A stretch of DNA of 38,662 nucleotides, from IMG/VR virus record IMGVR_UViG_2695420482_000015. One strand, 5' to 3'. The notes beneath the pieces are model-generated. The model was given only the letters and a program-made list of their open reading frames with translations, had not been told where the DNA came from and did no database searches. Origin of the DNA: a virus (lineage: Duplodnaviria; Heunggongvirae; Uroviricota; Caudoviricetes). Shown here in pieces: positions 25,565 through 38,662 of this stretch (within the stretch, counting starts at the first letter, position 1; each line of letters begins with the position of its first letter). The translations under genes were made by a program, and so were the position numbers.

Positions 25565-26282
25565 AACTGCTGCCTCCCCATGTGAGATATCGCGGTGCCA
25601 GTTCGCGCAGGATGCGCTGCGGATAATGGCGGTTCTCCCGCCAGCTGGCCGCATTGCGTCCGGCATTCACCGTGGCGACATGTCCGAACCAGCGGGTGCT
25701 GTCCAGACCTTTCTGTGATGCAAGCCGCCTGTCCCGTTGTACCCAGCCCAGACCACCGTTATAGCCCGACAGTGTCATGGCCATACGCTCGCAGTCACTG
25801 GCGGCGCTGACACGCTGCCACAGCCAGCGGTCATAGCTGACCAGCGCCCGGATAGCCCATGCCGGATTAAACGGCTCACGACTGCTCAGCATCGGTATCA
25901 ACTGGCTTATCCAGTCGGCAGTGGCAGGCATGAACTGCGCCAGTCCCTGAGCGCCAGCCGGCGAGATCGCATCAGGTCGCCAGCCGCTTTCCTGATGCAG
26001 TTGCGCGGCGAAATCGGCCACCGGCGCAGACAGTCCCCATTCAAGCCGGGCATTACGGATCACATCATCGCGATACTGCAGCGCAGCCTGCGGGGGCTGC
26101 GCTGCGCATGCCTGGCTGAAAAAGCCGCCACACCAGAGCAGCCAGACAATCACCAGGTTGCCAGCAAGCTGCCACCAGAAGCTGTATTTATCGTTACGTG
26201 GTTCTCCGTGTCTGATGGCGGTTACGCCCAGACCAAAGGCGAACAGAATAATGAGGGTGATTTGAGGCCAGTTCATGGTCAC
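25548..26282 (-). CDS. Endolysin, lytic transglycosylase with N-terminal signal-anchor (SAR-type)
   Basis: 244 aa; hydrophobic N-terminus then transglycosylase-like catalytic region (…LHQESGWRPDAISPAGAQGLAQFMP…). Confidence 0.85.
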   Translation of the reverse strand: MTMNWPQITLIILFAFGLGVTAIRHGEPRNDKYSFWWQLAGNLVIVWLLWCGGFFSQACAAQPPQAALQYRDDVIRNARLEWGLSAPVADFAAQLHQESGWRPDAISPAGAQGLAQFMPATADWISQLIPMLSSREPFNPAWAIRALVSYDRWLWQRVSAASDCERMAMTLSGYNGGLGWVQRDRRLASQKGLDSTRWFGHVATVNAGRNAASWRENRHYPQRILRELAPRYLTWGGSSCAASG

Positions 26283-26629
26283 AGTCCTGTTGCCACAGCC
26301 AGGCAGACCGCTGCAACAATCAGTGCACGGCGGATTAACGCAGCAGAAAACACCAGGTGAAGGCCGGTCTGTACCGGGAAACGCCCTTCAGCCATCAGCC
26401 TGTCGTCATGTTTCAGGTACTGACCGGGACGGGCTTTGGGGAAGAGCGAACGGTCAAGCCAGTAACCCAGCACTGCTGCCAGCGTGATAAGTGCCAGCTT
26501 GTAGATCACAACAGGCAACTGCTGTGGCGAGACCAGAGCGATGATGCCCAGCAACAGCACTGAGGTCAGCAGCCAGCCGCTGAGGCGAGGTTTTTTAACA
26601 GGGGGAATGAATTTTTTCAGGTTTTTCAT
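26279..26629 (-). CDS. Putative holin / lysis membrane protein
   Basis: ~116 aa from the ATG preceded by GAGGAGA; two predicted TM segments; first gene of the lysis cassette, start overlaps endolysin. Confidence 0.55.
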   Translation of the reverse strand: MKNLKKFIPPVKKPRLSGWLLTSVLLLGIIALVSPQQLPVVIYKLALITLAAVLGYWLDRSLFPKARPGQYLKHDDRLMAEGRFPVQTGLHLVFSAALIRRALIVAAVCLAVATGL

Positions 26630-26743
26630 GTGTGTCTCCTCGTTTGGTGGAGACAGCATCACAAATGTGGCGGGATACGGATTTTAAACAGCGTTAATAG
26701 TGAAGATGTAAACGTGCACTGCATGATGACTTTGAAAGAACGA

Positions 26744-26876: not shown

Positions 26877-27647
26877 ATGAAAATGCAGACATTACCCATC
26901 GTTCCATGGATTGGTGGCAAACGCCGCCTTGCAAAACACATCCTGCCGCTGTTTCCGGCGCATGAATGTTATGTGGAGCCGTTTTGTGGGGCAGCAGCGC
27001 TCTATTTTCTTAAGGTACCCGGCAAGATCGAAGTCATTAATGATATCAACGGTGAACTGGTGAACCTGTATCGGGTGGTAAAACATCATCTGGAAGAATT
27101 TGTACGCCAGTTCAAATGGGCGCTGGTCAGCCGGCAGATCTACAAATGGCTGCAGATCACCCCGGAAGAAACACTGACGGATATCCAGCGTGCAGCACGG
27201 TTCTACTACCTTCAGAAGCAGGCGTTTGGAGGCAAGGTGGCGGAGCACAGCTTTGGTACCTCCACCATATCCCCGCCACGCTTCAACCTGCTGCGTATTG
27301 AAGAAGAACTGTCAGCGGCACACCTGCGGCTTTCCAGAACGGTCATAGAACACATGGACTGGCAACAGTGCATAGAACGATATGATCGCCCGCATACGTT
27401 GTTCTACTGTGACCCTCCATACTGGGGAACGGAAGGTTATGGTGTGGAGTTCGGACTAGAAAATTATGATCATATGGCAGATTTAGCACGCAGGATCAAA
27501 GGGAAGATGATTATATCGGTGAACGATATCCCGGAAATGCGGCAGGCATTCAACGGTCTAAATATTCAGTCGGTTGATATCAGCTACAACCTCAAGATCA
27601 CTGGCAAATCCAGTCGCAAGAAGGAACTCATTATCCTCAACTTTTGA
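26877..27647 (+). CDS. DNA N6-adenine methyltransferase (Dam-like, orphan)
   Basis: 256 aa; N-terminal WIGGKRRL and FCGAAALYF AdoMet-binding motifs and DPPY catalytic motif (FYCDPPYWGT); no adjacent restriction endonuclease gene recognised. Confidence 0.85.
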   Translation: MKMQTLPIVPWIGGKRRLAKHILPLFPAHECYVEPFCGAAALYFLKVPGKIEVINDINGELVNLYRVVKHHLEEFVRQFKWALVSRQIYKWLQITPEETLTDIQRAARFYYLQKQAFGGKVAEHSFGTSTISPPRFNLLRIEEELSAAHLRLSRTVIEHMDWQQCIERYDRPHTLFYCDPPYWGTEGYGVEFGLENYDHMADLARRIKGKMIISVNDIPEMRQAFNGLNIQSVDISYNLKITGKSSRKKELIILNF

Positions 27648-28842
27648 CCGAATAGTAAGACTTCATGCAGTGAATCAAGTACTGCATGAAGTCAAGGGCT
27701 GGTTTTGTGTACCAAAAATAAACAGTGATAGCGGTAATAATTCCCATAACTAGAACACCACGTATAATCCAGAACGTACGTTTCTGCGTGTCTAGTCGCG
27801 CAGAAATACTGCTAAATACACCAGCCACGTCATCTTTAATGAAGGAATATTCCTTATTAATCTGTTTTTCTTTGTATTCAATTTCTTCGCCTAAGGCCTT
27901 TATAGATTGCATCTGGTTCGAAAGTGCCAGCCAGATTAACGTTGCAGCAAAAATGCATCCCAGAAGAATTATTGTGTTTGTTATCCCTTGGCCTGACCAT
28001 TTCGTAGCCACTTTGAATTGGGTAGCTACGATAACAGAGGCAACAGGAATGCCAAGTATATGGTTCTGGATATCTGAAAACGCTTTGTGGATTTTACCCA
28101 TTTCTTCGACTTTTGCAGCACGCAGTTGATCCATTACTTTGTCATAAGAGAATCCAGAAGAGTAGATACGATACCCTTTCAGAAACTTTTCATGCAGACG
28201 CTGAATATTGTCCAGTAAATAAGCGAATACTAGAGGTGAATCAATTCCATCACTAACTGCTTGGATACTTTCAATCAGAATATCTAGCTTCTGATCCTTA
28301 TGGGTATCATCATTGAAACAAGCTATAAGGTTATCAAGATACTCTCTTTGCAAATTTTGTACATTTTCTGCAGCGAAGTGCGGTAATAGCTTGATAACTT
28401 CTTTTTTCAGAAAAACTAACTGACAAGTTGAGTTATCAAAGTAGGCCGCGGCCTCTTTTAGCAGGTTAACGAACTCGAGAATCTTCCGGTAGTTGCTGAT
28501 GAAAACGGGGATATCTTCATCATCATTACGAAACTTTGTTTCTAGGATGAAGTAATTAGCTGGCTCAAGGCACTGATGCTTTGGAGCATTTAGCAATTTT
28601 TCATGGGTGGAAAACACAAGTCCCAGTCCACTCCGTGGTGACGTCACACGTAGGATGATCGTGTTACCTGGAGCGATAGTGCCTGTATCAATAGAAAGAC
28701 CATATTCACGAGGATCATCAAGCAAAGTATCAACCAGATCACAATCGGACTGATCTAAGAGCAACAGCGAACCGACACGAAACCCCTCTTGGAATTCCAT
28801 ACGACGATACAGATCTGTCAGCATCTCAAATGAAATCGCCAC
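27637..28842 (-). CDS. Hypothetical protein with soluble N-terminal domain and two C-terminal TM helices (candidate effector)
   Basis: 401 aa; GTG start 2 nt after the upstream stop with GAGG RBS (translational coupling); TM segments ITNTIILLGCIFAATLIWLALS and FWIIRGVLVMGIITAITVYFWY; AT-rich. Confidence 0.7.
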   Translation of the reverse strand: MAISFEMLTDLYRRMEFQEGFRVGSLLLLDQSDCDLVDTLLDDPREYGLSIDTGTIAPGNTIILRVTSPRSGLGLVFSTHEKLLNAPKHQCLEPANYFILETKFRNDDEDIPVFISNYRKILEFVNLLKEAAAYFDNSTCQLVFLKKEVIKLLPHFAAENVQNLQREYLDNLIACFNDDTHKDQKLDILIESIQAVSDGIDSPLVFAYLLDNIQRLHEKFLKGYRIYSSGFSYDKVMDQLRAAKVEEMGKIHKAFSDIQNHILGIPVASVIVATQFKVATKWSGQGITNTIILLGCIFAATLIWLALSNQMQSIKALGEEIEYKEKQINKEYSFIKDDVAGVFSSISARLDTQKRTFWIIRGVLVMGIITAITVYFWYTKPALDFMQYLIHCMKSYYSVKS

Positions 28843-28844
28843 GA

Positions 28845-29852
28845 TTAAACCTCAGTCATCCACATTTCCCTAAATTCTTCAGGTACATTACGTAGGGTGA
28901 TAATATTTGTTTCCGGATCATAATCAATATAGCCTTCAGTTTTCCCTTCCCGGTCAAACTTAAGTTCCCAATATTTAGACTTGCCTTTAAAAGATACCAG
29001 AGCCCGAATGACTCGACCATCAGGAACGAAGCCATCCGATAACTCCAACTCTTCAGCAGCAAGTTTACCAGATAACTCCTCGGGAGCCTGGGGCCAAATG
29101 GCATTAACAAGGGTTTCAAGACTAAGTGGTTCACCAGCCTTACTTAGTGCATGTAAGTGTTCAAACGCACTCTTAAGAAATGCATCTTTTTCAGCGCCGT
29201 CAAGTCCTTTCTCTGCCGCAAATGCTTTTAAAACGTCACGTAACTTTTCAGACTCTCGTTTGGCGATTAAGACATCATTACAGCCGAGGAACTGTTTAAA
29301 ATAGTTTGAAACATTACCTTGCCCCTTAAGAAAACTGATATAGCGCTCTGCGCCACTTTCCCACGCGGTTAAGTCAATGCGCCCAGCCATACGCAGCTTA
29401 GCAATATCAAGATAGGTACTATCTTGGATGTTAAAATCATCTGTGACAGTGGATCCAATGGTAGCGCTTACAATAGCTATCAACAGGTGTTCATTGTGTC
29501 CTATCACGATATTTGCAAAAAGAACATAACCACCAGTAGCCATGTTTTCTCGCTGAGAACGTTCCGTCAGGTGATGCATCATTCGGCAGGAACTTTGGTA
29601 GAAATCATCAACACCTTCGAGAAAGTCCCCAGCCATTCGTTCCATAGGATAGTTATCCGTATCGCCTTCAAAATAGCCATAACCTTTACCTGTGCGTCCT
29701 GCATATTTTGCACAAATATCGTTTATAAGGCGCTGGGAGGCTTCAGTAACTAGACCTTCTTCAGGACTCAATCTCTCAGAAGCGTCTCCATTTTGTTGTT
29801 TGTCTAAAATGTGAACTACAACGTGTTTAACTTCAATGGTCTGCTCAGACAT
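28845..29852 (-). CDS. Nucleoid-associated protein NdpA/YejK-like (NA37 family) paralog, phage-encoded
   Basis: 335 aa, same length as E. coli YejK; recalled YejK blocks align (GGYVLF…LLIAIVS; …YLDIAKLRMAGRIDLTAWESGAERYISFLKGQG…; C-terminal …YDPETNIITLR…). From memory, no search run. Confidence 0.65.
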   Translation of the reverse strand: MSEQTIEVKHVVVHILDKQQNGDASERLSPEEGLVTEASQRLINDICAKYAGRTGKGYGYFEGDTDNYPMERMAGDFLEGVDDFYQSSCRMMHHLTERSQRENMATGGYVLFANIVIGHNEHLLIAIVSATIGSTVTDDFNIQDSTYLDIAKLRMAGRIDLTAWESGAERYISFLKGQGNVSNYFKQFLGCNDVLIAKRESEKLRDVLKAFAAEKGLDGAEKDAFLKSAFEHLHALSKAGEPLSLETLVNAIWPQAPEELSGKLAAEELELSDGFVPDGRVIRALVSFKGKSKYWELKFDREGKTEGYIDYDPETNIITLRNVPEEFREMWMTEV

Positions 29853-29922: not shown

Positions 29923-30330
29923 TTAACCCACATTTTTTAACCGCTCAATCGTTGCGGATAATTCCTTCAGTTGTTTTTCCATCTCAATCACACGCTGTTT
30001 TTCTTCAGCGCCTCGCATGAGATCTCGCCGAACCTCAGGATCTAACTGGTTTAGAAGTTCAAGCATTTTAAGGTCTGACGGGCTGAATTGATGTTGTGTT
30101 GGTACAGCAACAATTTCTTTAGATGGAATATGTTCTTTACCGGTAAGTAGCCAATCGATCGATACACCCAAATGGGTGCTTAGCGCAACAAGAGCCTCTG
30201 CGTTTGGTTCTCTCTCTCCACGCAAATAGTTTTGAAGTGAGCGATATGGAATTTTTGATAAGTTAGATAATGCCTTTATTGTCATGCCATTAGCATCCAT
30301 CACTTCACGCAATCTCTCTTTTGTACTCAT
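29923..30330 (-). CDS. Prophage repressor, XRE-family HTH (c-like)
   Basis: Start at internal Met (MSTKERLREV…), 135 aa; N-terminal HTH_XRE and C-terminal coiled coil; divergent from the ner-like early operon. Confidence 0.75.
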   Translation of the reverse strand: MSTKERLREVMDANGMTIKALSNLSKIPYRSLQNYLRGEREPNAEALVALSTHLGVSIDWLLTGKEHIPSKEIVAVPTQHQFSPSDLKMLELLNQLDPEVRRDLMRGAEEKQRVIEMEKQLKELSATIERLKNVG

Positions 30331-30346
30331 TTGAACATATCTCAAT

Positions 30347-30374
30347 TTGACACACTCATTTGGGTGTGTACAAT
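30347..30374 (+). promoter_or_regulatory. Early promoter (Pe-like): TTGACA, 16-nt spacer, TACAAT, with operator-like inverted repeat cacac-N8-gtgtg in the spacer
   Basis: Consensus -35 and near-consensus -10 read directly, ~45 nt upstream of the ner-like ATG, between divergent repressor and ner-like genes. Confidence 0.6.
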
Positions 30375-30418
30375 AGACCCAATAGAGTACATCATAACCT
30401 AACAGGAACACGGTGCAT

Positions 30419-30643
30419 ATGAACAAACAACAAGTTCGGGCACGGCTGGTTGAACGAGGCAGTAGCTTGCGCCAGTTCGCGCTTAACGCGGGCTATGAAC
30501 CACGAACAGTCACCCAGGCAGTCAGTCGCTGGGCTGGTAAAAGTGAACTACCTCGCGGTCGTTTGACTTATCGGATTTTGCGAGATCTATCGGTTGCAAT
30601 AGGTAAAGAAGTTACCCCCGGTATCCTTAAGGAGGCGTCATGA
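30419..30643 (+). CDS. ner: Ner-like DNA-binding protein
   Basis: ~74 aa; ATG at 30419 preceded by AGGAAC; layout resembles Mu Ner/Nlp; first gene of the early operon. Confidence 0.6.
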   Translation: MNKQQVRARLVERGSSLRQFALNAGYEPRTVTQAVSRWAGKSELPRGRLTYRILRDLSVAIGKEVTPGILKEAS

Positions 30644-30948
30644 ATAAACCAAATACATCAAGCTCAGGTACCCGTATTTTGCGCGTTCTTAAGGCCTTAC
30701 GTGGCCACGCTTTGAACGGTGTTTCTAACGGGGAACTAGCGGTTGCACTGCACGAATCACCGGCAAACATCAACCGGGCACTTAACACGCTCATTGAAGA
30801 AGGGTTGGCTCTGAAACTAGAAAACGGGCGTTTCGCACCAGGCATCCAGTTGCTGCAGATCGCCATGGCCCACAGTAACGAGATGGCACGTGCACAGGAT
30901 CGCATTAACGAAATCAACCAACGTGTTATTTCAGGTAGTCGTTTGTAA
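30640..30948 (+). CDS. Small winged-helix transcriptional regulator (IclR-N-like HTH)
   Basis: 102 aa; …GTRILRVLKALRGHALNGVSNGELAVALHESPANINRALNTLIEEGLA…; ATGA overlap with ner-like gene. Confidence 0.55.
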   Translation: MNKPNTSSSGTRILRVLKALRGHALNGVSNGELAVALHESPANINRALNTLIEEGLALKLENGRFAPGIQLLQIAMAHSNEMARAQDRINEINQRVISGSRL

Positions 30949-30958
30949 GGAGTAATCA

Positions 30959-31870
30959 ATGGGACGCACCAAATCACCGGTTAGCACTGAACTGAACGTC
31001 GAGGTACCGCTGTCGGATGATCTCAATGTCAGTCTAAACGCCATGACACAGCATCGCATGGAAATCATGCAACAGTTCGGCGATGGTCTGCCCTATGAGC
31101 GCGATCGTGTTGTCCATGAGGCACGCTTTTATATGGCACAGAGCGCTGAGGCCATGCTGGAGGCAGGTAAGCGGCTGATAATCCTTAAGGAAAATGAACC
31201 ACACGGGGAGTTTATAAAGATTCTTGAAAGTGAGTTGGGGCTGGCATACCGGACATCTGTGAGAATGATGCAAGCATCGACAAAATACTTATCCCCGGCG
31301 CTGAAACCAAATGTGCCAACGTTGGCACATTTGGGAAAAGCCAAACTTTTCGAATTAATGACAGAAGACGACGAAGAGCTTGCCGAACTGGCCGACGGCG
31401 GCACAGTTGCCGGCCTGACGCTTGACGACGTTGATCGCATGTCAGTACGTGAATTGCGTCAGGCCCTGCGCGAAGCGCGCGAAACCAACGCAGCACAACA
31501 GCGCGTACTCGCTGACAAAAATGAAAAAATAGACTCACTCTCCACCAGACTGGAGAAGAAATCCCGTATTCAGCCGCCTGAGCCTGATGAAGAGGTTAAG
31601 AAGCTGCGGGCGGAAGTGACAGCATTAGCGGTTGAGGCGGAATCTGCTATCGCCGTTCGACTGTCCAGCGCTTTTGAGACGCTGTGCGCATATTGTGCTG
31701 AAAACATGATTGATACCCCCAGAGACTTCATGGCAGGCCTGGTCTGTCAACTGGAAAGCACAGCGCGTAGCCTGCGCTCCACATTTGACCTGCCGGATGA
31801 GCCAACAGGCAATGCCGCGCCTTCATGGCTGACTGAGCCGACGCCACAGATTAACGGGCTGGAGGCATAA
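30959..31870 (+). CDS. Hypothetical early protein
   Basis: 303 aa ORF with coiled-coil region, immediately upstream of the transposase. Confidence 0.5.
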   Translation: MGRTKSPVSTELNVEVPLSDDLNVSLNAMTQHRMEIMQQFGDGLPYERDRVVHEARFYMAQSAEAMLEAGKRLIILKENEPHGEFIKILESELGLAYRTSVRMMQASTKYLSPALKPNVPTLAHLGKAKLFELMTEDDEELAELADGGTVAGLTLDDVDRMSVRELRQALREARETNAAQQRVLADKNEKIDSLSTRLEKKSRIQPPEPDEEVKKLRAEVTALAVEAESAIAVRLSSAFETLCAYCAENMIDTPRDFMAGLVCQLESTARSLRSTFDLPDEPTGNAAPSWLTEPTPQINGLEA

Positions 31871-31873
31871 CCA

Positions 31874-33643
31874 ATGAATGCTGCCCTGACTGAACGACTG
31901 GTTTATGTCGCCCGCGCGGCACGTGACGCGGGGCATGGTAAACGCGGTGCAATATACGACGCTGCCTGTGCTGAACTTGGCATGTCCCGCGCCACTCTGC
32001 TGCGCAGGCTGAAGGAGGTCTCTGTGACTGATAAACGCAAAAAACGCGCTGATGCCGGACGCAGCGCCCTGACCCGCGACGAAGCCGCGCTGATATCTGC
32101 CACACTGCGTGAGGCCACCCGCAAGAACGGTAAGCGTCTCTATTCCATCGCGGATGCAGTGGAAACCCTGCGGGCTAACGGCTTTATCTCCGCAGGCAGA
32201 ACAGATGAAACCACCGGTGAGTTTTTCCCGTTGTCCGAAGATGCCATCAGTCGTGCCCTGCGTAACTATGGCCTGCACCCGGAACAACTGGATGCTCCTG
32301 CGCCGCATACCGAAGTGGCCAGTCTGCATCCCAATCATGTCTGGCAGATTGATGCCTCGCTCTGCACGCTTTACTACCTGAGCAATGGACACAAAGGGCT
32401 GCAGGTGATGGACAGCGCGAAGTTCTACAAGAACAAACCCGCTAACCTTGCCCGTATCGCCAGTGACCGCGTGTGGAGTTACGAGATTACCGACCATGCC
32501 AGCGGCTGGATTTACGTTGAGTATGTGACGGGTGCGGAATCCGGTGAGAACCTGTGTTCTGTGCTTATCAACGCCATGCAGGAGCGTGGCGGCGCAGACG
32601 TGCTGCACGGCGTGCCAAAAATACTCTATCTCGACCCCGGTTCGGCAAACACCGCGGGTATGACGAAAAACATGTGCCGCTCACTGGGCATTGACCTGAT
32701 AGCGCACAAGCCGCATAACGCCCGCGCCACCGGACAGGTGGAAAAGGCGCGTGACATTATCGAACGCAAGCTGGAGCCGGGTCTGAAGTTCCGGCCGGTT
32801 CACAGTCTGGAAGAACTCAACGCGCTGGCCGCGAAATGGCGCAGCCACTTTAACGCCACGGCTGTTCACAGCCGCCACGGTAAAACCCGCACGGATATCT
32901 GGCTGAAGATTACTGCTGAGCAGCTGAAAAAAGCGCCTTCCGTTGAGGTATGTCGTGAACTGGCTGTGGCGGCACCAGAACTCCGCAAAGTCACGCCAAA
33001 ACTTCGTGTCTCGTTCCGGGGCACTGAATTTGACGTATCAACGGTACCGGGCGTACTGGTTGGTGAAAAACTGATGATTACCCGTAACCCATGGCGCAGC
33101 GATGTGGCACAGGTGGTTCTGACCGGTGAGGACGGCCACGAGACGTTCTTCCTGGTCGAAGAGGTCAGAAAGAACGAGTTTGGCTTTGCTGAAGGCGCGG
33201 CGGTATTTGGCGAAAGTTACAAAGCCCTGCCGGAAACCCCGGCACAGATGGCGGCAAAAGAAACCGAAGCGCTGGTTACCGGTACAGACAACGCCGCAGA
33301 TGCAGCCGCCGCACGCAAGGCGAAGGCGCTGCCGTTCGGCGGGCGGCTTGACCCGTATAAACATATCGACGACACCACACTTCCGGCCTATATGCCGAAG
33401 CGTGGTCAGGCCTCTGACGTACGCGGGCCGCGCACTGAACAACGTCCCATGACTCATGTGGAGGCCGCGAAAGCCCTGCGCGATAAGTTCAGCGCCGACG
33501 GCCTTACCTGGACGCCGGAACATTACCGCCAGTTAACGGCACAGTACCCGGACGGCGTACCGGAAGCCGCACTGGATGAAGTCATGGCCACGCTGACCAC
33601 ACCGGCCCGCAGCAGTGTTATCAGCATTGTTAACGGCAACTGA
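31874..33643 (+). CDS. DDE transposase (integrase-core type; functional analogue of Mu A, BcepMu TnpA-like)
   Basis: 589 aa; candidate DDE triad in HVWQIDAS, ILYLDPGSAN and TGQVEKAR; followed by MuB-like ATPase; lacks the MuA N-terminal domain. Confidence 0.8.
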   Translation: MNAALTERLVYVARAARDAGHGKRGAIYDAACAELGMSRATLLRRLKEVSVTDKRKKRADAGRSALTRDEAALISATLREATRKNGKRLYSIADAVETLRANGFISAGRTDETTGEFFPLSEDAISRALRNYGLHPEQLDAPAPHTEVASLHPNHVWQIDASLCTLYYLSNGHKGLQVMDSAKFYKNKPANLARIASDRVWSYEITDHASGWIYVEYVTGAESGENLCSVLINAMQERGGADVLHGVPKILYLDPGSANTAGMTKNMCRSLGIDLIAHKPHNARATGQVEKARDIIERKLEPGLKFRPVHSLEELNALAAKWRSHFNATAVHSRHGKTRTDIWLKITAEQLKKAPSVEVCRELAVAAPELRKVTPKLRVSFRGTEFDVSTVPGVLVGEKLMITRNPWRSDVAQVVLTGEDGHETFFLVEEVRKNEFGFAEGAAVFGESYKALPETPAQMAAKETEALVTGTDNAADAAAARKAKALPFGGRLDPYKHIDDTTLPAYMPKRGQASDVRGPRTEQRPMTHVEAAKALRDKFSADGLTWTPEHYRQLTAQYPDGVPEAALDEVMATLTTPARSSVISIVNGN

Positions 33644-33653
33644 GGAGGGAAAC

Positions 33654-34820
33654 ATGCTGGTACTGAAGCAGCAACTGAAAGAGGCCCGTATTCCACAGGC
33701 GGTGGTGGCGAGAGCTGTCGATGTTTCTGAGGCCACGCTGGCCCAGATTGTGAATCATAACGCGTGGCCCCGCACCAGCCCCGGAGAAGTGCGCCGGCGT
33801 CTTGCGTCCTGGCTGGAAAGTCAGGGGATTGATACAACGAAGAGTTTTGATGCTGTACAGGGCGCGGCCACGCCCCGTACAGCGGGTACCACAGATAAAA
33901 CGAGCCTCAGTGAGGAAGAGAATATGTTACTCAAAAAACAGGTGTTATTTCCAGCAACCAAAAAAGCGTTTGGTCTTTTCCGTGACCCGTTCGCCGACGA
34001 AGCCATGCAGGGTTCTGATGATGTGTTCACCACCCCGGATATTCGCTACGTGCGTGAGGCGTTGTACCAGACAGCCCGTCATGGTGGGTTTATGGCCGTC
34101 ATCGGTGAGTCCGGTGCGGGTAAATCCACGCTGCGCCGCGACCTGACTGAACGTATCAACCGCGAGAATGCGCCGGTAATTGTTATCGAGCCATACATCA
34201 TCGCTATGGAAGACAACGATGTGAAAGGGAAAACCCTGAAGGCAGCAGCGATTGCCGAAGCCATTATCAGTACCATCGCACCACTGGAAAGCATCAGACG
34301 CAGTCAGGACGCCCGCTTTCGCCAGTTGCATCGCGTCCTGAAAGACAGCAGCCAGGCGGGGTTCAGCCACGTTCTGGTGATTGAGGAGGCCCACAGTCTG
34401 CCCATTCCGACACTGAAACACCTCAAACGCTTTTTTGAGCTGGAGTCCGGTTTCAAAAAACTGCTGTCCATCGTGCTGATTGGCCAGCCGGAACTGGCGA
34501 CAAAACTGTCTGAACGCAATATGGAAGTCCGTGAAGTCGTTCAGCGCTGTGAGGTGGTCGAACTTCTGCCTCTGGACAATAACCTTGAAGAGTTTCTGAC
34601 GTTCAAACTGCAACGGGCCGGTAAACAACTGACGGACATTATGGACGCCAGCGCAGTGGATGCCATACGTGCCCGCCTGAGCAATCCGGGAAGTCATCGT
34701 AAAAATATGGTCAGCCTGCTGTATCCGCTGGCCGTCAGTAACCTGGTAATAGCCGCCATGAATCTGGCCGCTGAAATCGGGGTTCCACAGGTCAACGCTG
34801 ACGTTGTCAAAGGGGTTTAA
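33654..34820 (+). CDS. Transposition helper ATPase (MuB/TniB-like AAA+)
   Basis: Start at ATG after GGAGGG; Walker A (GESGAGKST) and Walker B-like (HVLVIEEAH). Confidence 0.8.
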   Translation: MLVLKQQLKEARIPQAVVARAVDVSEATLAQIVNHNAWPRTSPGEVRRRLASWLESQGIDTTKSFDAVQGAATPRTAGTTDKTSLSEEENMLLKKQVLFPATKKAFGLFRDPFADEAMQGSDDVFTTPDIRYVREALYQTARHGGFMAVIGESGAGKSTLRRDLTERINRENAPVIVIEPYIIAMEDNDVKGKTLKAAAIAEAIISTIAPLESIRRSQDARFRQLHRVLKDSSQAGFSHVLVIEEAHSLPIPTLKHLKRFFELESGFKKLLSIVLIGQPELATKLSERNMEVREVVQRCEVVELLPLDNNLEEFLTFKLQRAGKQLTDIMDASAVDAIRARLSNPGSHRKNMVSLLYPLAVSNLVIAAMNLAAEIGVPQVNADVVKGV

Positions 34821-34822
34821 TA

Positions 34823-35092
34823 ATGAAATCCACCACAGGTATCAACCAGCAAATCAGCAAAGTGCAGTCAGCCATTATGGCGCTTAAGGCGACGAACACG
34901 GATGTACAAAGCATCACCATCAGGGGTAACAAACCTGTCATCCGCGTTTCCCGGAGTGCGCATTGCATGCGCATGCTTGAGCAGGGAAAGGCCTGTTATC
35001 TGTATACCGGTCATGACCACAGGGGACATTTCCGTCAGGGCGTTTTCGAACTGCACGGCTGTCGCGTCGTGTGGCCGGAATCTTTGTGGTAA
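34823..35092 (+). CDS. Hypothetical small early protein
   Basis: 89 aa ORF between the B-like and gam genes. Confidence 0.45.
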   Translation: MKSTTGINQQISKVQSAIMALKATNTDVQSITIRGNKPVIRVSRSAHCMRMLEQGKACYLYTGHDHRGHFRQGVFELHGCRVVWPESLW

Positions 35093-35119
35093 TCAGCACA
35101 ACAGGAGGAGTCATAAAAT

Positions 35120-35650
35120 ATGGCAAAAAGTACAAAAGGGGCAAAACGTATCAAAGCCGCAGCAGCACTCTGGGTGCCGGGGACACGCGAAGAGGTCATT
35201 GAGGGAATCAGACTGCTTGGTGACGCGCAACGTGAACTGGTCAGGGCTGAAACAGAAATGAATGACACCATTGGCGACATCACTGCACGTTATGCCCCGC
35301 TCACCGAGAGCCTGAAAAAACGCATGGCCGAACTGCAGTCCGGTATCCAGACATGGTGTGAGGCGCACCGTGATGAACTGACCGGCAACGGGAAGGTGAA
35401 GTTCGCTAACCTCACCACCGGCGAGGTGCAGTGGCGAAACCGTCCGCCGTCAGTCAGCATTCGCGGGGCGGATAATGTCATTGAACTGCTGAGACGTCTG
35501 GGGCTTGAGCGCTTTATTCGTGTAAAGGAGGAAATAAATAAAGATGCCATTCTGAATGAAAAAGAGGCTGTGAAAAATATTCCCGGTATTACCATAAAAA
35601 GTGATATTGAGGATTTTTCAATAATTCCTTTTGAGCAGGATGTGCAGTAA
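35120..35650 (+). CDS. gam: Host-nuclease inhibitor protein Gam (Mu Gam/Ku-like)
   Basis: 176 aa; close match to recalled Mu Gam along its length (MAK…KRIK…AAA…ETEMND…WCEA(N/H)RDELT…RPPSVSIRG…GITVKSGIEDFSIIPFEQ). Confidence 0.9.
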   Translation: MAKSTKGAKRIKAAAALWVPGTREEVIEGIRLLGDAQRELVRAETEMNDTIGDITARYAPLTESLKKRMAELQSGIQTWCEAHRDELTGNGKVKFANLTTGEVQWRNRPPSVSIRGADNVIELLRRLGLERFIRVKEEINKDAILNEKEAVKNIPGITIKSDIEDFSIIPFEQDVQ

Positions 35651-35747
35651 ACACACCACGTTAATTATTTAATAAAAACATTTTCTTTTTTATTCCGGCG
35701 TCAGCGCCGCGGGCTTCTGCACGCCGGAAACAGAGGAGAATTAAATT

Positions 35748-35942
35748 ATGATATTTAAATGTATTCAGTGCGAGAGGGATATAACAGCCCTGCGTTTTCA
35801 CAGCGCCATCGCCGTGATGTCCGGTAAGTATCACATACCTGCAGTACGTGTCACCCTGGTCTGCCCGTACTGCAGCCAGCATTTTTCGGCGGACGTGCCC
35901 GTCATGGAATTCTCCCGCCCTGACAGGGAGGACGCGCAATGA
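35748..35942 (+). CDS. Small zinc-ribbon-like protein (CxxC…CxxC)
   Basis: 64 aa with CIQC and CPYC pairs; RBS GAGGAG upstream. Confidence 0.5.
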   Translation: MIFKCIQCERDITALRFHSAIAVMSGKYHIPAVRVTLVCPYCSQHFSADVPVMEFSRPDREDAQ

Positions 35943-36211
35943 TTACCCCACAGGAAGCACGACAGCGCACCCGAACTCTTGTTGAACACTATGTCAACGA
36001 GTGTGAATGCCGCGACCTCACCGATGTGAAGCACGTCCTGACGGCGCTAATCAGCATGGCCACACAGGCCATTGTGGCGACCAACGGAAAGGAGGCTGCC
36101 CTGCAGGTACTGATGAACACACTCACCCACACGGCAGAGCATGAGGTGCCGTACCGGATGGAAACCACTGCAGAAGGCGGCCTGCACATCACCGTCAGCC
36201 GGAAGCACTGA
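35939..36211 (+). CDS. Hypothetical early protein
   Basis: 90 aa ORF, overlapping start and stop with neighbours. Confidence 0.45.
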   Translation: MITPQEARQRTRTLVEHYVNECECRDLTDVKHVLTALISMATQAIVATNGKEAALQVLMNTLTHTAEHEVPYRMETTAEGGLHITVSRKH

Positions 36212-36220
36212 GGGCGCGGC

Positions 36221-36517
36221 ATGACACGAAACACCGAACTCACCCGCACCGCCCTCTACCGTCTGGCCCTGCAGCGTTTCGGGCCGGACGCACAGGCCCT
36301 GAAACTGGCAGAAGAGGCCGCTGAACTGGCGGCCAGTGCCGCCCGCAACCTGAACGGACAGGGCAGCGAAAGTGACCTCGCGGCAGAGCTGGCAGACGTG
36401 GAAATCATGACAGAGCAACTGCGCCTTCAGGGGATGGACCGGCTGATTGACTTCCACAAACAGAAAAAACTGGAACGTCTGGCTGCACGACTGGGCGTGA
36501 TTTACACGAACGAGTAA
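36221..36517 (+). CDS. MazG-like nucleotide pyrophosphohydrolase (small, single-domain)
   Basis: 98 aa with paired acidic helical motifs (LAEEAAELAASA and AAELADVEIMTEQL), typical of the all-alpha NTP-PPase fold. Confidence 0.6.
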   Translation: MTRNTELTRTALYRLALQRFGPDAQALKLAEEAAELAASAARNLNGQGSESDLAAELADVEIMTEQLRLQGMDRLIDFHKQKKLERLAARLGVIYTNE

Positions 36518-36531
36518 CCGGGAGGCATTCA

Positions 36532-36747
36532 ATGGCTGACATACTCAGGGAAATCACCGCATGGACACTGATTCTTACTGGCCTGGCGACATGCCTCAGT
36601 GCGGGGGCAGCCCTGGCTGCCCTGCTGATGCACATAACAACACAGTGGTTATGGGAAAAGCTTAAAGCAGCATACAGCCTGAAAGAGCTGTCCGACGCTG
36701 TCCGGGCATGGAAACGGCAGAAAAATACCGGAGATACAGAACAATGA
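36532..36747 (+). CDS. Small membrane protein
   Basis: 71 aa with one hydrophobic helix. Confidence 0.45.
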   Translation: MADILREITAWTLILTGLATCLSAGAALAALLMHITTQWLWEKLKAAYSLKELSDAVRAWKRQKNTGDTEQ

Positions 36748-37427
36748 CAGACCAGAATAAACACATTGAGAAACTGAAAAAGTTGCTGGCGCTGGCCGCA
36801 TCCGGCAACCCGCACGAGGCCGCTCTGGCACTGCGCCGAGCCCGTAAACTGATGGATGTTCACGGCATCACACATTCCGACATTGCTATGAGTGATATTG
36901 ATGAAACCATCAGTCACTACTGGCCGACAGGCAGTCTCCGTCCACCGCGCTACATGCTGGGCCTGATGAACATCATCCGCGAGGTATTTGGTGTTAACTC
37001 CATCATTCACCCCGGCACGCATCCGTCTGTGGGGTTCTACGGCAACCGGGAACGTGCGGCACTGGCTGCATACACCTGGGAAGTGCTGGCCCGTCAGCTG
37101 AAAAAGGCGCGTCAGCAGTATATCAGTGCACAGAACAAAAGAATAAAAACCGCCACCCGCACCAGCCGTGGAGACCAGTTTGCCGAAGGCTGGGTGCTGG
37201 CCGTTATCAGTGAAATACAGTCCTTTGCCCTGACCGATGATGAGCGTGAACTGATGCAGCAGTGGCTGGAACATAAATACCCGCAGACGCAAACCACCAG
37301 GGCGCGTAAACCGGGAAGAAGCCGCAATGGCGACGCCTCGCGCTATGCGGGGTTTCGTGAAGGGCAGAACGTCAGACTGCACCGCCCGGTCAGTGGGCAG
37401 GAACAACAGAAACTGGAGGCCAGATGA
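36744..37427 (+). CDS. Conserved phage protein
   Basis: Start at internal ATG (MTDQNKHIEKLKKLLALA…) overlapping the upstream stop; ~227 aa. Confidence 0.5.
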   Translation: MTDQNKHIEKLKKLLALAASGNPHEAALALRRARKLMDVHGITHSDIAMSDIDETISHYWPTGSLRPPRYMLGLMNIIREVFGVNSIIHPGTHPSVGFYGNRERAALAAYTWEVLARQLKKARQQYISAQNKRIKTATRTSRGDQFAEGWVLAVISEIQSFALTDDERELMQQWLEHKYPQTQTTRARKPGRSRNGDASRYAGFREGQNVRLHRPVSGQEQQKLEAR

Positions 37428-37654
37428 TTACGCTATCAGGTAAAAGCCGGAAATTAAAAGCCTGCCGAATATCTGCCAGATACCTTTTTGCCCGCGCCTT
37501 TTTTAAGAACGTCAGGCCGGGGATCACAATTGGTGTTATTGCCGGACGCGAACAGGTTGAAAAATACATGTCAGGTGCATGGTGGAATAACGACCCTGTC
37601 ATTGCTGCCCGTAATATTCATATCGAATGGGGAGGTATTCAGAATGACTACTGA
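37424..37654 (+). CDS. Hypothetical small early protein
   Basis: 76 aa ORF. Confidence 0.4.
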   Translation: MITLSGKSRKLKACRISARYLFARAFFKNVRPGITIGVIAGREQVEKYMSGAWWNNDPVIAARNIHIEWGGIQNDY

Positions 37655-37850
37655 AACCATTGTCTGTTTTCTTTTCTGGTATATGTACGCAGGATCATGC
37701 AGCGCAAGACTTCATCGTTCCCTGGGCTATGGCAGGCACTACGACACCGCGCATTACATCCTGTACATGACCGCCGTCATGTTGTTCTGGCCAGTCCCCC
37801 TGCCAGCTGCAACCGACATTGTTGCCGACAGACTGAAAAAAAGGAGATGA
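37644..37850 (+). CDS. Small membrane protein
   Basis: 68 aa from internal Met (MTTETIVCFLFWYMYAG…), two hydrophobic segments. Confidence 0.4.
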   Translation: MTTETIVCFLFWYMYAGSCSARLHRSLGYGRHYDTAHYILYMTAVMLFWPVPLPAATDIVADRLKKRR

Positions 37851-37851
37851 T

Positions 37852-38301
37852 ATGCAGAAAAAACGCCTGATACAGCTTATCCATATTGCCCGTAATGAAC
37901 TGGGTATGGATGAAGACACCTACCGCCAGATGTTACAGGGGCTGACCGGTAAAGCCTCAACCAAAGGAATGGATACCACACAACTAAACTGCGTGCTGGA
38001 ATCCATGAAAAAGAAAGGCTTTCGCGTTAAACCAGCCAGAAAAGCCAGCTCCGGTTTACCGCTTGATAACCATCCGCAGTCCAGGAAAATTCGTGCGCTA
38101 TGGCTTGAAATGGCTGCTGCCGGCATTGTTCGTGACCGTTCAGAAAATGCATTAGCGAGGTGGATCAAGCGGGAAACGGGCATCAGCGCCCTGCGCTGGC
38201 TCAGTACTGAACAGGCAAGCAGTGTTATTGAGAAACTGAAGAAGTGGCAGCGCAGAGCTGCGGGAGTCAAACATGAGCGACCTGAATCAGTTTCGAAGTA
38301 A
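37852..38301 (+). CDS. gemA: GemA-like regulatory protein (Mu gp16-like)
   Basis: 149 aa; N-terminal LIQLIHIARNELGMDEDTYRQMLQGLTGKAS pattern typical of Mu GemA-family proteins; immediately upstream of mor. Confidence 0.75.
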   Translation: MQKKRLIQLIHIARNELGMDEDTYRQMLQGLTGKASTKGMDTTQLNCVLESMKKKGFRVKPARKASSGLPLDNHPQSRKIRALWLEMAAAGIVRDRSENALARWIKRETGISALRWLSTEQASSVIEKLKKWQRRAAGVKHERPESVSK

Positions 38302-38662
38302 GGGGCCGGAACTCCTGGTGGAACTGGCACAGCATACCTCTGAGACCGTTCGCGAGATTATTGATATTGAGCCCGAAGTTGCCGACCAGATTGGTCAGGC
38401 CGTCGCGAACCGAATGATGCAGGTCTGGGGCGGGCAAAACGTTTATTTCCCGATGGGCATGGTATGGAAGGTCAGTCAGCGCGACCGGGAAATCTTCAGG
38501 GAGTTTAACGGACGCAACCACCACGAACTGGCCCGCAAATTTGGTGTTTCGCTTCAGTGGGTCTACAGCGTGGTTAAGCGGGTAAGAAAAGAAGAACTGG
38601 ATCGGATGCAGGGCAAGCTATTTGCTGATGAACCCGATGCAGATACGGAGAAAAAAGAGTAA
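38273..38662 (+). CDS. mor: Middle operon regulator Mor-like transcription activator
   Basis: 129 aa (same length as Mu Mor) with C-terminal HTH (ELARKFGVSLQWVYSVVKR); stop codon is the last triplet of the window. Confidence 0.8.
   Translation: MSDLNQFRSKGPELLVELAQHTSETVREIIDIEPEVADQIGQAVANRMMQVWGGQNVYFPMGMVWKVSQRDREIFREFNGRNHHELARKFGVSLQWVYSVVKRVRKEELDRMQGKLFADEPDADTEKKE

Follow-up and report, generated by a model that had tools for sequence, protein, structure and literature searches.

The 98-aa open reading frame (ORF) at 36221-36517 on the plus strand of the DNA analysed here, a stretch of 38,662 nucleotides (the window; IMG/VR record IMGVR_UViG_2695420482_000015), is a genuine gene under purifying selection, and its conserved residues and modelled structure indicate that it very probably encodes a small nucleotide pyrophosphatase of the MazG/HisE type. 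The ORF itself, its PHROG match, its dN/dS values, an AF2 model and the name given by RefSeq PGAP all bear on this description of a MazG/HisE-superfamily (PHROG 2245) nucleotide pyrophosphohydrolase-like protein.

A small gene in the early operon of a Mu-like prophage

The frame runs from ATG to TAA and fills exactly 36221-36517. A Shine-Dalgarno-like GAGGG, read from the sequence at 36210-36214 (+), lies 6 nt before the ATG and shares bases with the stop codon at which the preceding gene ends (36211); the following gene begins at 36532, 14 nt past the stop of the target, and has its own GGGAGG site. These short gaps and Shine-Dalgarno sites point to tight, operon-like packing, and no terminator-like site was found on the plus strand between 35100 and 38662. 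Longer ORFs overlap the gene on the opposite strand (36047-36532 and 36405-37406) and were ruled out as real genes by the homology of the plus frame to PHROG 2245 and by its dN/dS, which was 0.08-0.32 wherever dS was measurable (Nei-Gojobori, 50 distinct homologous genes from viral contigs).

The window is an E. coli prophage of the transposable, Mu-like type and resembles BcepMu. Over bases 35000-38662 it shares 98.8% identity with Escherichia phage PhiKM (assigned to Bcepmuvirus), where the counterpart of the target is annotated 'hypothetical protein'. The late structural genes occupy the minus strand (about 1-26660) and the early genes the plus strand (30640-38662), a divergent arrangement that is the BcepMu-type layout. 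The plus-strand set comprises a Ner-like HTH protein, a DUF3102 protein, an rve-type transposase, a MuB-like AAA protein, Gam, GemA and Mor, with a CI-type repressor gene divergent from it, and the target is placed between the MuB-like/Gam genes and GemA/Mor. This gene context confirms the location given in the earlier note, an early, semi-essential-type operon of a Mu-like phage. The same note put the gene next to gam: the two do share the operon, but they are not adjacent, as two genes lie between them.

Gam, the host-nuclease inhibitor, is encoded upstream at 35120-35650 (+; Pfam Phage_Mu_Gam 1.1e-40; PHROG 491), and the two intervening plus-strand genes encode a Cys-rich, zinc-ribbon-like protein of 64 aa (35748-35942; PHROG 3401, E=1e-40) and a PHROG 3691 protein (35939-36211). 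Downstream, all on the plus strand, follow genes for a small membrane protein (36532-36747; PHROG 3958), a DUF2786/DUF7168 protein (36708-37427; PHROG 421), a PHROG 3681 protein (37424-37654), a PHROG 6436 protein (37644-37850), GemA (37852-38301) and Mor (38273-38662), the last two overlapping by 29 nt. The DUF2786/DUF7168 gene, two genes 3' of the target, is frequently, though not always, kept with it in related Mu-like loci. Both ends of the window coincide with stop codons, that of a 449-aa minus-strand ORF at position 1 and that of Mor at 38662.

Several further features of the window were recorded alongside the target. The PhiKM record carries a minus-strand hypothetical protein in the region equivalent to the window ORF 35661-35939, whereas relatives keep the plus-strand zinc-ribbon-like ORF upstream of the MazG-like gene; the deposited PhiKM annotation at 35661-35942 is probably on the wrong strand. 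A sigma-70 promoter-like site at 30347-30374 (+), with the near-consensus TTGACA-16-TACAAT (11/12), lies ~265 nt ahead of the Ner-like gene, within the 5' part of the divergent repressor ORF, and is a candidate early promoter. On the minus strand, a gene for an NA37/NdpA-like nucleoid-associated protein (28845-29852; Pfam NA37 1e-80) and one for a 401-aa protein of PHROG 5023 (27637-28842), the C-terminal part of which weakly matches KwaA of Kiwa (PADLOC E=8e-5), adjoin the repressor gene (29923-30426). Because this pair lies on the repressor strand, it may be expressed in the lysogen, and the two genes may form a cassette (27637-29852) with which the prophage exerts defence or superinfection exclusion. 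Between this pair and the lysis cassette (holin 26279-26662, minus strand) lies an orphan Dam-like D12-class N6-adenine DNA methyltransferase gene (26877-27647, +; Pfam 7e-28; PADLOC MTase_II 4e-115), transcribed against its neighbours.

Family assignment, conserved signature and predicted fold

The target matched PHROG 2245 ('nucleoside triphosphate pyrophosphohydrolase') at E=5.5e-34, its residues 1-97 aligning with positions 113-211 of the 218-position profile, and all longer or fused relatives tested also fell in PHROG 2245. It is a direct member, with no family-level difference, of a family whose label is a computational annotation. RefSeq PGAP gives several identical E. coli prophage copies the name 'nucleoside triphosphate pyrophosphohydrolase family protein'. 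Annotation of the gene as an NTP pyrophosphohydrolase is thus already public in PHROGs and recent RefSeq, which makes the finding an ordinary one. The close homologues are enterobacterial prophage proteins without a precomputed Pfam domain, one of which IMG names 'NTP pyrophosphatase (non-canonical NTP hydrolase)'. An exhaustive profile search over 50% identity clusters gave 10,443 cluster representatives at E<=1e-3 and 1,913 at E<=1e-10, and a word-index profile search added at least 7,182 further proteins, none with a Pfam domain on record. We found neither experimental work on the PHROG 2245 clade nor a solved structure from it.

The MazG/HisE signature is spaced as E-x-x-E, 12-28 residues and E-x-x-D. 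In the target it reads E32-x-x-E35, 20 residues and E56-x-x-D59, preceded by an additional acidic residue, E31. Across the superfamily this metal-binding signature is borne by two helices (Moroz et al. 2005, as cited in PMC8342488 and PMC6850273). The first half (EExxE, codons E31-E32-A-A-E35 at 36311-36325, +) and the second (ExxD, codons E56-L-A-D59-V-E61 at 36386-36403, +, including the family-specific acidic residue E61) were read from the sequence and the family alignment. Among aligned family members, E31 is kept in 296/296, E32 in 293/296, E35 in 292/296, E56 in 294/296 and D59 in 297/298, and E61 in 254/297. All five acidic positions of EExxE-(20)-ExxD are complete in 285 of 290 relatives at 30-100% identity, a degree of conservation that, with the canonical spacing, is hard to explain without metal binding. 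Two basic residues of the C-terminal helix are likewise nearly invariant (K83-L-E-R86, codons 36467-36478, +; K83 in 285/292 and R86 in 284/289), as are Q25 and Q66. The full family signature is Y13, A16, [W/F/Y]20-G21, Q25, E31-E32-x-x-E35-L36, E56-x-A58-D59-V-E61-I-M-x-E65-Q66 and K83-L-x-R86-L-x-x-R90.

Individual homology statistics linking the protein to solved or curated MazG families are all weak. The target scored E=0.023 against Pfam PRA-PH (PF01503; 15.5 bits, under the 21.3 cut-off), and its sole match in an NCBIfam scan was hisI, sub-threshold at E=0.029. Sub-threshold PRA-PH matches recurred in 16 of 21 close family members, and MazG (PF03819) was matched at E<0.01 in 21 of 75 diverse members, the best at 2.2e-5 and still below threshold; the clade thus falls under the gathering thresholds of Pfam MazG, MazG-like (PF12643) and PRA-PH. 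When the family profile was compared with PDB sequences, 11 matches were obtained at E<=1. Five of these are MazG-type, namely 5ie9 (E=0.011), 2q73, 2q5z, 2gta and 1vmg, with their motifs in register: EExxE of the target aligns with EEmgEL of Bacillus MazG 5ie9 and ExxD with EElgDV. The others are mostly designed helical bundles. A PDB sequence search with the single protein returned chance helical matches only and was set aside.

An AF2 model built from a deeper alignment is all-alpha with a pLDDT of 94.8 and has the all-helical MazG-HisE fold. The best solved-structure matches of this model are DCTPP1, iMazG, HisE domains and Bacillus MazG, every one of them statistically weak, and S-2L MazZ (7ody) is among its Foldseek matches. 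It supersedes an earlier AF2 model from a shallow alignment, which was unstable across models (pLDDT 53-91).

From the motif and the predicted fold, together with profile matches that are weak but agree with one another, we assign the protein with high confidence to a small, single-domain branch of the MazG/HisE superfamily, a placement distinct from orthology to E. coli MazG. The earlier note had read the gene as a small MazG-like NTP pyrophosphohydrolase, a reading that these data sustain at the superfamily level. It had proposed structure prediction as a check, and the modelled fold agrees with it; the metal-binding acidic residues that it expected an alignment to reveal (E31/E32/E35/E56/D59) are present and nearly invariant.

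The small MazG-like proteins of solved structure include the Bacillus-conserved MazG (5ie9), integron iMazG (2q73/2q5z), B. subtilis YpjD (2gta), Sulfolobus SSO3215 (1vmg) and human/mouse DCTPP1/RS21-C6 (7mu5/2oig). The target shares 18-27% identity with them, at E-values of 0.01-1, and differs in bearing the clade's own signature (Y..A...[WFY]G...Q / ADVEIMxEQ / K..KL.RL..R). E. coli MazG, of the mazEFG operon, has the same superfamily signature (EEmGDL), but it is a 263-aa protein with tandem domains. An hhalign comparison of the family profile with E. coli MazG gave a probability below 1%, a result that is uninformative rather than negative because the MazG side was a single sequence or a shallow 15-sequence alignment (relatives at >=80% identity). 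E. coli MazG (3cra) was also not among the PDB profile matches at E<=1. Given that no match to E. coli MazG was detectable, 'MazG-like' is here a superfamily-level term and does not denote orthology.

Position and distribution among phages

A 901-base stretch containing the gene (35900-36800) occurs in 621 of 5,426 complete E. coli genomes (~11%), always in the chromosome. The family profile retrieved 80 IMG/VR loci (46-100% identity), in every one of which the gene lies upstream of GemA and Mor on the same strand, and it lies downstream of the MuB-like gene wherever the latter is recognisable. As these loci were chosen for carrying the gene, they show that its position is conserved and do not give its carriage rate among Mu-like phages. 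Its immediate neighbours (Gam, the zinc-ribbon ORF, PHROG 3691 and the small membrane protein) vary among the 80 loci; in the more distant Mu-like relatives the zinc-ribbon (PHROG 3401) and PHROG 3691 genes differ or are missing. A tblastn search found no match in phage Mu at E<=1.

Six distant family members examined on their own contigs all lie in early regions of other phages, four of them with recognisable replication or recombination neighbours. In two of these four, PolA, ThyX and a cytosine methylase precede the gene and a VapE-type primase and an SNF2 helicase follow it; in another, ERF and a DnaD-like protein come before it and SSB and RusA after it; in the fourth, a helicase, VRR-NUC, a methylase and a Mom-like protein are followed by the gene and then by a sigma-like regulator and terminase. 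The remaining two have small unannotated early ORFs around them and a sigma-like regulator downstream. The distant members and the target share a placement at the end of an early/replication block, ahead of the late activator, which favours a role in DNA synthesis or the nucleotide pool.

Some relatives depart from the single-domain form. Three enterobacterial proteins of 169 aa (P0012, P0029 and P0031) share a conserved C-terminal extension of ~70 aa (...LPRRELLEDWCGAVP...), and two metagenomic relatives (P0052 and P0057) have two tandem domains, the first copy in P0052 being without the EE motif, an echo of the two-domain E. coli MazG. In two others (P0026 and P0036) the protein is joined to the upstream zinc-ribbon ORF, a fusion that probably reflects read-through or a gene-calling artefact. 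A search for informative domain fusions among relatives of 149-293 aa returned extra parts that match only PHROGs of unknown function or resemble read-through from adjacent ORFs.

Proposed role and alternative activities

On balance, and with moderate confidence, we propose that the protein is a small MazG/HisE pyrophosphohydrolase, made early, that sanitises or tunes the dNTP pool for replicative transposition. Judging from its position, the gene would be transcribed with the early operon after induction or infection, alongside the transposition genes, Gam and GemA/Mor. By analogy with solved relatives, two or four copies of the protein would assemble, with each active site formed at a subunit interface; there, Mg2+ would be held by E31/E32/E35 from one helix and by E56/D59 (plus E61) from an antiparallel helix, and the phosphates by K83/R86 of the partner chain. 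We infer this binding in trans from K76/R83 of S-2L MazZ (PMC8342488), a (d)GTP-specific tetramer in which basic residues from a second chain complete the pockets, a layout that would fit the conserved K83/R86 of the target. The enzyme would then cut the alpha-beta phosphoanhydride bond of a (d)NTP to yield (d)NMP and pyrophosphate, its likeliest job being 'house-cleaning' or conditioning of the (d)NTP pool during the phage's replication by transposition. MazZ and the MazG of cyanophage S-PM2 are, like the target, phage-borne and of MazG/HisE type, and the target has no close sequence relationship to either. MazZ differs further in its extra C-terminal beta-strands and in serving a Z-base pathway alongside PurZ and DatZ; neither of those two proteins was seen in the scanned parts of the window.

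The conserved residues are also compatible with a narrower activity, that of a base-specific pyrophosphatase acting on a canonical dNTP or NTP (e.g. dCTP, dGTP or dUTP), which would reshape nucleotide pools or stop host DNA or RNA synthesis in a host takeover. Small relatives with such specificity exist: DCTPP1/RS21-C6 acts on dCTP derivatives, MazZ on (d)GTP, and S-PM2 MazG hydrolyses dGTP and dCTP and not (p)ppGpp (PMC6850273). In addition, Y13, A16, [W/F/Y]20-G21 and Q25 of the N-terminal helix are conserved family-wide, as might be expected of a defined base pocket. However, there is no obvious reason for a temperate Mu-like phage of ordinary DNA to reshape its pools, and we regard this activity as unlikely. 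A protein that resembles MazG and acts without catalysis, as a helical regulator or protein-binding factor, would agree with the weakness of every single homology statistic to solved or curated MazG families, given that short helical hairpins draw spurious matches and that designed helical bundles appear among the PDB matches. Such a protein is hard to reconcile with a five-residue acidic signature kept, at canonical spacing, in nearly all relatives and with MazG-type enzymes making up 5 of the 11 best PDB sequence matches. The related notion that the ORF is a mere shadow of coding on the opposite strand is contradicted by dN/dS and PHROG matches, which fix the plus frame; we judge this pair of explanations very improbable.

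The earlier note had pointed to degradation of alarmones or signalling nucleotides and suggested a part in counter-defence or host takeover. Such an enzyme would hydrolyse (p)ppGpp, or a defence signal or its precursor, early in the lytic cycle and so blunt stringent-response-linked or abortive-infection pathways. The precedent, and the one MazG-like phage enzyme known to act against defence, is Atd1 (anti-TIR defence 1) of Pectobacterium phage PcCB7V, which hydrolyses ppGpp with a Km of about 50 uM and protects against TIR-STING and retron-TIR toxicity (bioRxiv 10.1101/2022.06.09.495361). Reading the PcCB7V annotation, we found the likely Atd1 gene product in QQG33500.1 (86 aa), picked because it is a PRA-PH-like ORF two genes from a phage nucleotidyltransferase; PcCB7V had not come up when phage records were searched by tblastn with E. 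coli MazG. Like the target, this candidate is phage-encoded, small (roughly 86-98 aa for the two), of the same superfamily and endowed with the same catalytic signature, and the early operon of the target also carries host-takeover functions such as Gam. By contrast, the candidate, whose identity as Atd1 we infer, belongs to another subfamily and sits near the nucleotidyltransferase in a lytic 146-kb phage. The target and QQG33500.1 gave E=0.25 in BLASTP and a probability of 0.4% in hhalign, and the family HMM found nothing significant among all PcCB7V ORFs (best E=0.43). The target is not an orthologue of the candidate Atd1, and with no significant similarity between them a counter-defence role is not transferable by orthology.

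A PADLOC-DB scan of the target and its neighbours likewise returned no match at E<=0.1, distant family members lie in replication modules rather than anti-defence islands, and S-PM2 MazG neither binds nor hydrolyses (p)ppGpp (PMC6850273), so alarmone hydrolysis is not general to phage MazG proteins. Taken together, these results leave the counter-defence or host-takeover role possible but unsupported, and we consider alarmone or defence-signal hydrolysis rather unlikely. A stronger form, in which PHROG 2245 as a whole would be a dedicated counter-defence enzyme that removes an alarmone or immune signal, convergent with Atd1 and evolutionarily separate from it, seems to us distinctly unlikely; if true, it would explain why the gene is retained in diverged Mu-like phages despite the turnover of its neighbours.

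The gene favoured here as a conditioner of the dNTP pool is carried by about a ninth of complete E. coli genomes, and its clade is very large, phage-typical and without Pfam coverage. Assigning a substrate to this 98-aa protein would therefore give function to thousands of phage genes, and would show whether the MazG-like enzymes of phages as a group keep dNTP pools clean, alter their composition or counter nucleotide-based immunity.
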